From: Candidatus Aenigmatarchaeota archaeon
GTDB lineage: Archaea > Aenigmatarchaeota > Aenigmatarchaeia > CG10238-14 > SpSt-28
DNA: 52,480 nt
NCBI GenBank assembly: GCA_038742305.1
Contig: JAVYKI010000005.1
Location: 1-52,480, forward strand
Reading direction: 5' to 3'
The notes under the pieces are model-generated. The model was not told where the DNA came from, did no database searches, and worked only from the letters and a program-made list of their open reading frames with translations. Shown here piece after piece: positions 2,081 through 49,934 of the stretch (position 1 is the first letter of the stretch; each line of letters opens with the position of its first letter). A program made the position numbers and the translations under genes.

Positions 2081-2190
2081 TGGGCCGGGCGGGATTTGAA
2101 CCCGCGACCTACGGGTTTCATTTCATCTTTTTTCAAAGCTTTTAGTTTAGACTAAAAGCCCGCCGCTCTACCTAGCTGAGCTACCGGCCC
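2081..2190 (-). tRNA. tRNA-Lys(TTT) with 36-nt intron at 37/38 (intron 2117-2152)
   Basis: Reverse complement folds as GGGCCGG TA GCTC..GAGC G GCGGG CT TTT A [intron] A CCCGT AGGTC GCGGG TTCAAAT CCCGC CCGGCCC A. Confidence 0.95.
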
Positions 2191-8986: not shown

Positions 8987-10539
8987 GCTAAAAACTTAAC
9001 CATATAAGGTCCTTCCCTTTCATATCCAAGCTTTCTATAATATTCTCTAGTTCCTATTGCACTTATTACAACAATTTTTCTTCTATCAAATTCGTTTAAT
9101 GCAATTTCTTCAGCAATTTGCATTAACTTTTTTCCAAAACCTTTATGCTGGAAATGAAATTCTTTTGGCAAAGAATTTATTGGCAAGTGTAAACCTAAAA
9201 CTTTCAGTTCTCTAATTAAAGCGCTTTTGCTATCTATTTCTTTTCTATGAGAACTGTCTGGAATTCTTAGCCTTAAATATGCATAAAGAGTTTCGTTTTT
9301 ATCTTCGAAAGAAAGAAAAATTTCATTTCCATCATTTGCAATGTAATCAATTCTTTCTAAATGAATGCTTTCAACATTTGGTTTAATCCCTTTTTTAATT
9401 CTTATTCCAACTTCTCTACATCTTATGCATTTACATTCAATATTTAACTCTTTTGCTCTTTTTTCAACATATTCTCTCAAATTTGTAAAAGTATAGCCAG
9501 CATCTATATCGTTAGCTGGTAAATCTCTTCCAAGCCTTTGAATTCTAACATATTTTGGAATAAACTTTAATGCTTTTGCAAGCAGATCAACTAATTCTTC
9601 AAATTCATAAAGCTTAAATTCTTTTCTTTCATACATTTGCCACAAAGGAGTATTTTTAAAAAGCTGCAAAGGATAAATTTTTAAGTAATCTGGCCTAAAG
9701 TTTTCATTTTCAAAAAGTTCTTTAAACATTTGCAAATCTTTATCTAAATCGCTCTTAGGTAAGTTTGGCATTATGTGATAAGTAATTTTTAGAGCTGCAT
9801 TCCTTGCAATTTTTGTTGCCTTAATTACATCTTCTATTGTATGATTTCTCCTTACAAAATCTAACACATCATTATAAATGCTCTGAACACCTATTTCAAC
9901 TCTAGTAACTCCATATCTTAGCATTTCATCTACATGCTTTTCAAAGCATAAATCTGGCCTAGTTTCAATAGTTAAGGCTACACATCTATATTTTGCTTTT
10001 TCGTTTTTTAATTGAGCTTCTTCTAAGCTGTTTGAATCTTCTTCATTTAATGCATCGAAAACTCTTTTAATAAACCATTCTTTATAATCTTTTTCTAATG
10101 CAAGAAAAGTTCCAAGAATTATTATTTCTATTTTTGAATTTTCAGAAAGCAGCCCCATCATTTTGTAATGATAAAGCCTAGTTTTTACTTGCTCATAAGG
10201 GTCAAAATCTACTCTTTTTGCTCTTTGGATTGCTGGCTCGCTAGGAGTATAGCTTCTAGGAATTCCATTAAACAAAGGACAATAAATGCAATTACCTCCA
10301 CAAGGCCCTGGCTTTGTTGCTAAAGTAATTATTAAAACTCCGCTGCTAGCTCTTATAGTTTTGCTTTTTATTTTTTCTGTTAAATCAATATTAAGCTTTT
10401 CTTTAATTAACTCTAAAACTTTTATAGTTCTTAGTACTGGAGCATTGTATTTTTTGGCTAAATAAATCTTTAACTTTTCAAATTCTTCCTTGTTTCTGGC
10501 TTTTGTTAATTCTTGTAAATATTGTAAAGGAATTTCCAT
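8983..10539 (-). CDS. elp3: Elp3 tRNA U34 carboxymethyltransferase (radical SAM + KAT)
   Basis: CGGNCIYCP, PRSYTPSEPA, ETRPD, VEIGVQS, CKCIRCRE and FQHKGFGKKL; likely start MEIPLQ at 10539. Confidence 0.93.
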   Translation of the reverse strand: MEIPLQYLQELTKARNKEEFEKLKIYLAKKYNAPVLRTIKVLELIKEKLNIDLTEKIKSKTIRASSGVLIITLATKPGPCGGNCIYCPLFNGIPRSYTPSEPAIQRAKRVDFDPYEQVKTRLYHYKMMGLLSENSKIEIIILGTFLALEKDYKEWFIKRVFDALNEEDSNSLEEAQLKNEKAKYRCVALTIETRPDLCFEKHVDEMLRYGVTRVEIGVQSIYNDVLDFVRRNHTIEDVIKATKIARNAALKITYHIMPNLPKSDLDKDLQMFKELFENENFRPDYLKIYPLQLFKNTPLWQMYERKEFKLYEFEELVDLLAKALKFIPKYVRIQRLGRDLPANDIDAGYTFTNLREYVEKRAKELNIECKCIRCREVGIRIKKGIKPNVESIHLERIDYIANDGNEIFLSFEDKNETLYAYLRLRIPDSSHRKEIDSKSALIRELKVLGLHLPINSLPKEFHFQHKGFGKKLMQIAEEIALNEFDRRKIVVISAIGTREYYRKLGYEREGPYMVKFLA

Positions 10540-29641: not shown

Positions 29642-30145
29642 ATGCAGCATCAAAATTCAAAAAATGTTCTTTCCCAAGTTCTTAAAATTCTGTTTTCTGA
29701 TTTTGAATTACAAAATTTGACTAGAACAGAGCTTAAAAATTTATCTTGCTATTCTGAAGGAGAAAAAGTTTTTTGTAGAGAAATATATTCAGGTTATAAA
29801 ATTTGTGGCTCTCCGGATGCAGTAATACCATATTATACTAATGGATTATCAGAAGAATGTATTAATATTTTGCTTGATTTAGTTTATTATAAAGGATATT
29901 CAGAGATACCTGTTGAATGTAAAAGAACTAAAAGAAAAACGCTATCAAAATCTCATTTATTACAACTATTTAAGTACCTTTTTATTTTCGAATCTGATAA
30001 GGGTTTTTTAGTTTATTCTAATTCTGAAGAAACAATAGTTTATTTAGTTGAAATTAATAAAGAAAGCTTAAATTTTCTAGTTCGTGAAATAATAGAAAGA
30101 ATAAGAGAAACGCCGGGGGTGGGATTTGAACCCACGCGGGCGTAA
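29642..30145 (+). CDS. Cas4-like PD-(D/E)XK nuclease
   Basis: ICGSPDAV, PVECK, QLFKY and GFLVY; 3' end reads into the antisense of tRNA-Ser. Confidence 0.72.
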   Translation: MQHQNSKNVLSQVLKILFSDFELQNLTRTELKNLSCYSEGEKVFCREIYSGYKICGSPDAVIPYYTNGLSEECINILLDLVYYKGYSEIPVECKRTKRKTLSKSHLLQLFKYLFIFESDKGFLVYSNSEETIVYLVEINKESLNFLVREIIERIRETPGVGFEPTRA

Positions 30146-30207
30146 AGCCCACCGGCTTTCTCTATAAACTCCAGGCCGGCGCCCTGGTCCAGCTAGGCGA
30201 CCCCGGC
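30111..30207 (-). tRNA. tRNA-Ser(GGA) with 11-nt intron (30158-30168)
   Basis: GCCGGGG...CCGGC CT GGA G [TTTATAGAGAA] A GCCGG, long variable arm GGGC-TTTAC-GCCC, G73. Confidence 0.93.
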
Positions 30208-31889: not shown

Positions 31890-32024
31890 CCCCGGGTAGC
31901 TCAGTCTGGAAGAGCGCCCGGCTGTAGAACCGCGCTTAATTGCGCGGGGAGCAGCCGCGCTCGGTTTTGCGAGCGGTGAGCTAAAGAAACCGGGAGGTCG
32001 CCGGTTCAAATCCGGCCCCGGGGA
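31890..32024 (+). tRNA. tRNA-Tyr(GTA) with 61-nt structured intron (31928-31988)
   Basis: CCCCGGG...CCCGG CT GTA G [intron] A CCGGG AGGTC GCCGG TTCAAAT CCGGC CCCGGGG A; C1:G72 and A73 identity elements. Confidence 0.95.
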
Positions 32025-36331: not shown

Positions 36332-36765
36332 AAAATTTAATAAAGAAAAACTTTGACTGCGAAATAGATGAAAATTTAGAATTTAGAATTAAAAAAGAAA
36401 AAGTTTTTGTTTTTAAAAAACATTTAATAAATTTTTGGCAAGAATTAAGATCTAAAAATGTTAAAGTTAATCCTTTAGGCATATATTTCGGAAAAATAAA
36501 AAATAATGAAAAAATTCAATTAAGTATAGAAGGAGCTCAAATTGTTGGAAAAAATGCTAAGAAAAACGTATTTGAAATAGATGATTATAAAGAGCTATAC
36601 GAGTTTTTACTAGGAAAGCCTATAGAAATAAAAGAAAATGTAGAAAAGCATAATTTTCCTATATTGAAATATAAGGATTTGCCAATATGTGCAGCTTCTA
36701 GTAGAGAAAATGAAATAATTAGTATATTTCCTAAAGTAGCTAAAAAAATGATTATGAAAGAGTAG
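36328..36765 (+). CDS. NIP7/PUA-like putative RNA-binding protein
   Basis: LGIYFGKI...LSIEGAQIVG...FLLG pattern. Confidence 0.6.
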   Translation: MKNLIKKNFDCEIDENLEFRIKKEKVFVFKKHLINFWQELRSKNVKVNPLGIYFGKIKNNEKIQLSIEGAQIVGKNAKKNVFEIDDYKELYEFLLGKPIEIKENVEKHNFPILKYKDLPICAASSRENEIISIFPKVAKKMIMKE

Positions 36766-36861
36766 CCGGGGTAGTTTAGCGGCAGAACGCCGCGCTCATA
36801 TCGAGCTTTGAAAGATGATAGAGAAACGCGGAGGTCGTGGGTTCAAATCCCACCCCCGGCA
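36765..36861 (+). tRNA. Elongator tRNA-Met(CAT) with 25-nt intron (36801-36825)
   Basis: GCCGGGG TA GTTT..GAAC G CCGCG CT CAT A [intron] A CGCGG AGGTC GTGGG TTCAAAT CCCAC CCCCGGC A; not initiator-type (no A1:U72). Confidence 0.92.
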
Positions 36862-49851: not shown

Positions 49852-49934
49852 AGCCCCGGCCGGGATTTGAACCCGGGACCTCTGCTTTACTGCTAGCTAC
49901 CAGAGCAGCGCTCTACCAGCTGAGCTACCGGGGC
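49852..49934 (-). tRNA. tRNA-Thr(GGT) with 10-nt intron (49888-49897)
   Basis: GCCCCGG...CTGCT CT GGT A [GCTAGCAGTA] A AGCAG AGGTC CCGGG TTCAAAT CCCGG CCGGGGC T. Confidence 0.92.

Follow-up and report, generated by a model that had tools for sequence, protein, structure and literature searches.

Why archaeal tRNA genes keep their introns is a long-standing question, whose sole accepted functional case is the guide RNA carried by the intron of pre-tRNA-Trp. The same question is raised by a tRNA-Lys(UUU) gene located in the stretch of DNA analysed here (52,480 nucleotides, hereinafter referred to as the window) and interrupted by a short intron, in which a preliminary description had recognised a possible box C/D guide directed to the wobble nucleotide U34 of its own precursor. 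The window represents one contig (C5) of a genome (G000) of 592,509 bp, assembled in 22 contigs, with a GC content of 26% and an estimated completeness of 91%. The comparative analysis of this intron suggests that it and its kin are probably natural box C/D guides provided with a single K-loop ("half-mer" guides) and devoted to the ribose methylation of nt 34.

The tRNA-Lys(UUU) intron and its two predicted folds

The tRNA-Lys(UUU) gene is located on the minus strand at positions 2081-2190 of the window and encodes a pre-tRNA of 110 nt, which matches the Rfam tRNA model (RF00005) with 63.3 bits; in the alignment of this region to the model, an insertion of 37 nt follows nt 37. The 5' exon (nt 1-37) covers positions 2153-2190 and the 3' exon (nt 38-73) positions 2081-2116 of the same strand, and the anticodon loop reads CUUUUA, followed by a 36-nt intron at the canonical position 37/38 (from 2152 down to 2117) and then by A38. 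The gene is missed by ARAGORN in its default mode; it is found when introns are allowed, but its anticodon is misnamed.

The minus-strand reading of the intron corresponds exactly to the one initially proposed: after GU, it comprises the tetranucleotide CUAA (intron nt 3-6, positions 2147-2150), the putative guide ACUAAAAGC (intron nt 7-15, 2138-2146), one spacer nucleotide (U, referred to as N1, at 2137), the D'-like box UUGA (intron nt 17-20, 2133-2136), the stretch AAAAA (2128-2132), the C'-like box GAUGA (intron nt 26-30, 2123-2127), and the 3' tail AAUGAA (2117-2122). In the predicted fold, the guide forms 9 bp with nt 31-37, i.e., the proposed target stretch G31-A37 (2159-2153), and with the first two nucleotides of the intron, and the resulting hairpin is closed by the CUAA loop; the assignment of the guide is based on this fold and on the covariation described below. 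Intron nt 12 (2141), which is the fifth nucleotide upstream of UUGA (D'+5), is placed opposite U34 (2156), as had been claimed. The AAAAA stretch would represent the loop of the K-loop, whose length ranges from 2 to 10 nt in the relatives, and a pair between N1 and the final A of the C'-like box is expected.

The intron shares with the pre-tRNA-Trp type the position 37/38 and a target located at nt 34 of the host tRNA, and its guide lies upstream of D' with the fifth nucleotide facing the one to be modified (9 bp, D'+5 opposite U34). The potential for the tandem G.A pairs of a D'/C' K-loop can be recognised, at the sequence level only, in the arrangement UUGA-5 nt-GAUGA, whose D' box departs from CUGA at the first nucleotide. 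A terminal K-turn pair formed by box C (RUGAUGA) and box D (CUGA) is absent from both the intron and the flanking exons, and there are just six nucleotides between the C' box and the splice site. Because of the lack of such a terminal pair the bipartite architecture is missing: the intron exhibits a single guide rather than the two spacers of about 12 nt of a bipartite, pseudo-symmetric RNA, and one K-loop with one guide rather than the four boxes of a full sRNA with a second guide for nt 39. The search of the intron against Rfam did not retrieve any snoRNA or sRNA family, even at E = 10. The comparison of positions 1950-2320 with two raw metatranscriptome runs and with one RNA and one DNA contig set retrieved just two reads and one contig piece, all of them on the conserved 3' exon, and in this sparse coverage no RNA splice or circle joints were found.

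The predicted minimum-free-energy fold of the whole pre-tRNA has an energy of -45.7 kcal/mol (z = -3.64), a value that was not reached by any of 200 shuffled sequences. The 9-bp hairpin between anticodon and intron, already proposed on the basis of the sequence, belongs to this fold as well as to that of the anticodon arm alone. A second fold, the bulge-helix-bulge in which two 3-nt bulges harbouring the splice sites flank a 4-bp helix, can be drawn by placing nt 32-35 opposite intron nt 31-34, that is, C32-U35 opposite the AAUG of the 3' tail, with three out of four positions paired and one U.U mismatch. The intron is therefore endowed with two anticodon-complementary stretches, one for each fold. 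The predicted energies of the Lys arm are -12.7 kcal/mol for the guide fold vs. -0.7 to -1.5 kcal/mol for the bulge-helix-bulge, which is thus weaker by about 11 kcal/mol. The idea that the guide fold excludes the splice-competent one is in full agreement with these predictions, in which the 5' splice site is buried inside the guide helix, so that the RNA must refold before the splicing endonuclease cuts.

The following series of events may be envisaged. The UUGA and GAUGA boxes would fold into a K-loop through tandem sheared G.A and A.G pairs, followed by U.U, U.G, and U-A; L7Ae would bind the K-loop and Nop5-fibrillarin would then dock, while the nine nucleotides upstream of the K-loop would be paired with nt 31-37 of the same precursor. 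Since U34 stands opposite the fifth nucleotide upstream of D', its ribose would be 2'-O-methylated (Um34). The 3' part of the intron would then re-pair with nt 32-35, giving the bulge-helix-bulge to be cut by the endonuclease; we infer from the two competing folds that methylation would precede splicing.

Introns of the same plan and their conservation

The preliminary description treated the Lys intron as a single case. The intron it reported is real; nevertheless, it is not a one-off, since it belongs to a lineage-wide family with eight members in this genome. ARAGORN, run with introns allowed, disclosed 41 tRNA genes, 16 of which harbor an intron at position 37/38, and misnamed several of the intron-bearing ones. 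The introns were analysed with a script that takes each xxGA word followed by GA within the next 2-10 nt and asks what pairs with the fifth nucleotide upstream. Half of the 16 introns (Lys-UUU, Glu-UUC, Gln-UUG, Arg-UCU, Leu-UAA, Leu-CAA, Met-CAU, as well as Trp-CCA) follow one plan, i.e., a segment complementary to nt 31-34 and to nucleotides beyond them (4-9 bp), one U, UUGA or CUGA, a loop of 2-6 nt, and GA-NNN (GAUGA or GAAGA), with D'+5 corresponding to nt 34 in all eight cases. The guides of the Trp, Met, and Leu-CAA introns have only 4 bp, and the Trp intron is just 23 nt long. The second member located in the window is tRNA-Met(CAU) (36765-36861, plus strand), whose 25-nt intron (36801-36825) contains the guide GAGC, the spacer U at 36807, UUGA, the loop AA, and GAUGA, with D'+5 opposite C34. 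No intron is present in the U34 tRNAs of four-codon boxes of this genome (Val-UAC, Arg-UCG, Leu-UAG, Gly-UCC, and Ala-UGC); this, together with the list of the eight hosts, indicates that, apart from Met and Trp, the hosts read split NNR boxes. On the two strands of the genome there are 26 copies of the word TTTGA-N2-6-GATGA, vs. a mean of 11.5 in block-shuffled sequences, and five of these 26 occurrences fall inside tRNA introns, which account for roughly 500 nt of the 1.18 Mb scanned.

The window also harbors tRNA-Ser(GGA) (30111-30207, minus strand), with an 11-nt intron, and tRNA-Thr(GGU) (49852-49934, minus strand), with a 10-nt intron, both devoid of box motifs; hence, not all the introns of this genome are guides. 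Two further tRNA genes deserve a mention on their own: one with anticodon UAU (Ile), rare in archaea, which has a 14-nt intron without boxes (contig C16, 4931-5016), and a partial tRNA(CAU) of 62 nt (contig C4, 33313-33374), exhibiting three G-C pairs next to the loop and probably representing the initiator.

The conservation of boxes and register in orthologous introns, on which the preliminary description had made its own proposal depend, was checked by a BLAST search of the Lys precursor against 61 genomes of the order. Out of the 30 best loci, 24 (the one studied here included) are tRNA-Lys(UUU) genes, and all 24 keep both features: the guide, a single spacer nucleotide, a D'-like box (UUGA, CUGA, or UCGA), a C'-like GA-NNN, and D'+5 opposite U34, while the hairpin loop and the loop of the K-loop drift in both length and sequence. 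The remaining six loci are Arg-UCU, Met, Thr, or Lys-CUU genes, and the Arg and Met ones share the same design. In some of the Lys-UUU loci (L017, L021-L023, L026, L032, and L034, from genera g5, g6, and others) a second intron is located near position 30/31, beside the 37/38 guide intron. In nine further genomes, where the BLAST matches covered the exon halves only, the Lys(UUU) gene is intronless in eight (from families f5, f7, and others) and has an intron elsewhere in the ninth; the element is therefore widespread, though not universal. As for a possible stand-alone guide in the intronless lineages, the pattern TAAAAGCNYTGA gave 26 matches in five genomes vs. three for the reversed control; the surroundings of these matches look protein-coding, two of them at most being ambiguous, and no replacement guide was recognised in this way.

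The covariation between guide and anticodon was analysed on an alignment of 26 anticodon arms, of which 16 belong to Lys orthologues and 10 to other tRNAs, bearing in mind that the rows were picked for showing the motif and that the structure was derived from the same rows. Considering stem and guide helix together, 98.3% of 292 cells are paired and nine out of 12 pairs change on both sides; for the guide helix alone the corresponding values are 97.3% and six out of eight pairs. None of 500 shuffles reached any of the observed covariation measures, and sliding the partner by 1-3 columns lowers the pairing to 37-57%. The pair 34:N5 is U-A in 22 arms and C-G in four, and the pair 31:N2 is G-C in 22 and C-G in four; the GA of D', embedded between loops differing in length and sequence, does not vary in any of the 26 arms. 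Guide and anticodon also change together within a single genome, where the seven other tRNAs carrying the module have a guide matched to their own anticodon loop.

A covariance model (R1) built from the 26 aligned arms recovers the eight introns of this genome at E ≤ 3e-7, the next match having an E-value of 0.0036. Matches were found in 80 of the 101 genomes of the order, with the following distribution by family: f1, 18/18; f2, 49/53; f3, 3/3; f4, 1/1; f5, 7/23; f6, 1/1; f7, 0/1. When the search was extended to 151 genomes drawn from the phylum, other orders included, 69 of them gave matches. The 25 matches from other orders that were retrieved for inspection comprise 17 readable ones, corresponding to Met, Trp, Arg-UCU, Gln-UUG, and Lys-UUU introns with guides of 5-9 bp, and eight in which ARAGORN found no tRNA and the parser returned nothing. 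In one f2 genome (G025), in which all the tRNAs were analysed, seven such introns are present (Met, Arg-UCU, Trp, Leu-CAA, Gln-UUG, Glu-UUC, and Lys-UUU), and in a genome of another order (G185) the intron-bearing tRNAs that were examined include four with such an intron at 37/38 (Met, Arg-UCU, Trp, and Gln-UUG). In the tRNA-Leu(CAA) of G185 the intron lies 5' of the anticodon loop, and its guide forms 9 bp with the loop located downstream, so that D'+5 still corresponds to C34; in our ranking, this gene would represent the strongest single argument that what is conserved is the register and not the splicing geometry. The same genome contains two shifted registers: the Lys intron would place D'+5 at C32 according to a manual reading, the scans having found no K-loop there, and in one other tRNA D'+5 falls at U33.

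A wider sample of 93 distinct parsed 37/38 introns, biased in that many loci came from BLAST or from the box-containing R1 model, yielded K-loop candidates in 67 introns. D'+5 corresponds to nt 34 in 49 of these, to nt 39 in six, to nt 32, 33, 35, or 36 in four, and is placed elsewhere or nowhere in eight. Among the 49 introns with D'+5 at nt 34, the D'1:C'6 pair is U:G in 26, C:G in 16, and U:A in seven, with none unpaired; D'2:C'5 is U:U in 33, U:A in 12, C:G in two, and other in two; N1:C'7 is U:A in 37, U:G in four, G:C in one, and unpaired in seven. Since the candidates had been pre-selected for at least two out of three pairs, these counts are weaker evidence than the guide covariation. 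The combinations of CUGA with GAAGA and of UCGA with GAGAG look compensatory. The nucleotide preceding the GA of C' is A in 29 introns, U in 15, G in three, and C in two, and the uridine of box C is listed among the features needed for L7Ae binding (PMC7994747). Given this uridine, the prevalence of A over the mere 15 cases of U counts against the interpretation of these introns as guides. The ribosomal Kt-7, which is bound by L7Ae, has an A at this same position.

Other introns of this genome have a guide-like aspect. In a second class the C' box is of the GAUGA type and D' is degenerate (AAGA, GUGA, GCGA, or AGGA); this class comprises Thr-UGU (contig C1, 78626-78731), Cys-GCA (contig C3, 50879-50979), Tyr-GUA (window 31890-32024), and the Thr-UGU of another genome (G011, locus L029). 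In this class, which accounts for the six candidates mentioned above, the pairing of the 6-8 nt located upstream spans the 3' splice site and brings D'+5 to nt 39, the second position for which the Haloferax Trp intron has a guide. The introns of Ser-UGA (contig C1, 92633-92771) and Ser-CGA (contig C2, 27917-28055), of 53-54 nt, look like full box C/D sRNAs, with CUGA, a loop of 3-6 nt, AUGAUGx in the middle of the intron, and degenerate terminal boxes. A stand-alone four-box C/D sRNA (locus L176) is located on the minus strand of contig C4 (approximately 63185-63234), with the layout C box, 12 nt, CUGA, UUA, C' box, 13 nt, and CUGA; it is the only match in the genome to a strict four-box pattern (0.05 expected), which none of the eight half-guide introns matches. 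For the two Ser introns and the C4 sRNA, the search of the assembly, in which the rRNA genes may be missing, yielded no convincing complement among tRNAs or rRNAs.

Protein genes and competing explanations

The genes that such a particle would require are present. Fibrillarin (220 aa, 272 bits) and Nop5 (323 aa) are encoded by adjacent genes, and an L7Ae gene is present as well. The nearest named relatives of Nop5 belong to Aenigmatarchaeota genomes; when this protein (L002:1024-1995) is compared with the structures from Pyrococcus and Sulfolobus, the two stretches that align have offsets differing by about 27 residues in the coiled-coil region, suggesting that the dimerisation arm may be shorter than in the model enzymes. 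The window also encodes an Elp3 homologue (8992-10503, minus strand; 584 bits to TIGR01211), 7 kb from the tRNA-Lys gene, so that U34 probably also carries an xm5 group; Um34 would then probably be formed on an Elp3-type xm5U, and the predicted product would be an xm5Um-type nucleoside. Concerning a protein-only route to Nm34, the two matches to the FtsJ model turned out to be a generic methyltransferase and an NSUN-type m5C enzyme; a true FtsJ/Trm7 gene was not found in the genome, nor any SpoU-family match above the cut-off; as the assembly is 91% complete, such an enzyme may have been missed. The splicing endonuclease (L175; contig C7, 7718-8527) is a single polypeptide composed of a catalytic unit and a beta-like C-terminal unit (363 aa in the stop-to-stop frame, 269 aa in the ORF starting from TTG), resembling the fused, broad-specificity types reported for ultrasmall archaea (PMC3239211).

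Three other explanations of the same introns can be taken into account. According to the first one, the guide is the same, but it would act in trans after splicing: the excised 36-nt intron, a stable small RNA either linear or circularised by tRNA ligase, would join L7Ae, Nop5, and fibrillarin and methylate another precursor or mature tRNA-Lys, the in-cis hairpin being a mere by-product of complementarity. The Haloferax pre-tRNA-Trp intron guide is reported to act in trans in two reviews (PMC4090602, PMC11408192), and circularisation is described for archaeal tRNA introns and C/D sRNAs (PMC7994747). The comparison of the guide helices formed with the precursor and with the mature tRNA by the 49 introns with D'+5 at nt 34 can be read both ways. 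The mature anticodon loop pairs as well or better in 27 of them (equally in 20, over a longer stretch in seven), while the helix is longer on the precursor in the other 22, since it runs on into the first nucleotides of the intron; the Lys guide gains in this way 2-3 bp that are unavailable on the mature tRNA. Moreover, one K-loop may offer little protection to an RNA of 36 nt. On the whole, the helix lengths lean towards an action on the precursor, without settling the choice between cis and trans, and the action in trans appears possible, albeit rather unlikely.

A second explanation, which we regard as quite improbable, assigns to the K-loop no role in methylation: L7Ae would bind it and act as chaperone or timer while the pre-tRNA folds and is spliced, with anticodon and 5' splice site masked by the hairpin until the protein leaves. 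The predicted mutual exclusion of the two folds fits this scheme, and so does the fact that 41 of the 49 introns keep the second anticodon-complementary stretch with at least three of the four central bulge-helix-bulge pairs (4/4 in 27, 3/4 in 14); furthermore, human pre-mRNA intronic kink-loop RNAs are claimed to regulate the splicing of their hosts, as stated in a preprint (bioRxiv 10.64898/2026.08.03.742641). However, a chaperone would not explain why the box is located exactly one nucleotide past the pairing with nt 31, why D'+5 corresponds to nt 34 in 49 out of 53 guides in which it lands on nt 32-36, why an intron relocated across the loop (as in the Leu-CAA of G185) preserves the register, or why the hosts are tRNAs known elsewhere to have a guided Nm34 (PMC7994747). 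The last and least probable explanation, according to which there would be no ribonucleoprotein at all and the shared elements would derive from the common descent of spreading introns, from splicing-motif constraints, and from A/U-rich composition, can appeal to the intron transposition between tRNA genes described in Thermoproteales (cited in PMC8450103), to the overlap of the C'-like GAAGA/GAUGA with the stretch pairing with CUUN in the splicing fold, and to the low GC content of the genome, yet it is hardly compatible with loops that drift around a D' GA, spacer, and guide register fixed across seven families and other orders, with compensatory guide changes matching each anticodon, with an enrichment of the motif by orders of magnitude in the introns over the rest of the genome, and with the presence of two anticodon-complementary segments where the splicing motif needs just one.

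The interpretation of the Lys intron and its kin as guides for nt 34 is itself confronted with some adverse observations, namely the lack of a terminal C/D pair, UUGA in place of CUGA, guides of 4 bp, the lineages with an intronless Lys(UUU) gene, in which the pattern search disclosed no stand-alone guide in its place, and the shifted registers.

Comparison with known guides and implications

The closest known system is the euryarchaeal pre-tRNA-Trp intron (Haloferax, and sR50 of Pyrococcus), described as a unique example in two reviews (PMC4090602, PMC11408192). As in the introns described here, the guide resides in a 37/38 intron and targets the wobble nucleotide of its own tRNA (C34 in Trp), and its fold competes with the splicing fold. 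Unlike them, the Trp intron constitutes a complete sRNA, in which the C, D', C', and D boxes are all present and accompany two guides (for C34 and U39), whereas the introns under study have one K-loop and one guide in 23-46 nt, and the module is found in eight different tRNAs per genome, five of which are U34 tRNAs. Trans-acting sRNAs directed to nt 34 are known too: C/D sRNAs for Leu-CAA, Leu-UAA, Met, and Trp are listed for Pyrococcus (PMC7994747), with which the set of nt-34 targets proposed here matches, and sR26 (Trp), sR27 (Gln), sR45 (Val), and sR46 (Thr) for Pyrobaculum (PMC6009581). These sRNAs share with the introns the rule of the fifth nucleotide upstream of D/D', the position 34, and an overlapping set of tRNAs; however, they are free-standing and bipartite, while here the guide is embedded in the intron of its own target and has no terminal C/D motif.

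As far as the single-motif architecture is concerned, the engineered half-mer guides MMG4 and MMG5, consisting of one K-turn or K-loop and a 5' guide, are reported to be efficient and strictly specific with L7Ae in vitro (PMC9670817). The order of the elements, a guide followed by a single K-loop, is the same; nevertheless, those are laboratory constructs acting on separate substrates, whereas the present ones are natural, conserved, and joined to their target by a loop of 4-9 nt. In an earlier work, a single-motif hemi-complex is described as active but non-specific, and the symmetric design is called absolutely conserved in nature (PMC1635284). In Drosophila, a minimal box C/D snoRNA with a single domain needs no more than one box set and a single antisense element (PMC7994747); it has these two features in common with the introns, and it differs in being eukaryotic, in having a K-turn in the terminal stem and the guide between C and D, and in not being located in a tRNA intron. 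Full-text searches of the literature, most subscription journals and supplements excluded, retrieved no description of single-K-loop guides in tRNA introns and, within the same limits, none of such guide introns in DPANN archaea. The Trp intron guide and the nt-34 sRNAs acting in trans were already known, while natural half-mer box C/D guides housed in tRNA introns appear to be new; the reading of these introns as guides is supported by the comparative evidence.

The presence of the module in eight tRNA introns implies that this lineage would store guides for wobble methylation inside the very genes they target. It is quite possible that this holds on a broader scale, and we would give an even chance to the idea that most of the canonical tRNA introns of Aenigmatarchaeota-like DPANN are single-K-loop guides wired in cis, in which a two-state switch would enforce methylation before splicing, and that Thr-UGU, Cys-GCA, and Tyr-GUA may serve nt 39. 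In this case, the intron would be kept because it represents the only copy of the guide, and natural half-mer box C/D particles would exist. The R1 model is ready for the annotation of such guides in DPANN genomes. If the proposed function is true, these introns are the smallest natural methylation guides known (23-46 nt), and the bipartite box C/D architecture, treated as defining and disputed in vitro, is not obligatory in nature. The proposed guide role provides a concrete and testable function for roughly half of the tRNA introns across an entire lineage, in which the retention of introns would be linked to decoding: apart from Met and Trp, the hosts are readers of split NNR boxes, and in these tRNAs the rigidity of the wobble nucleotide matters.
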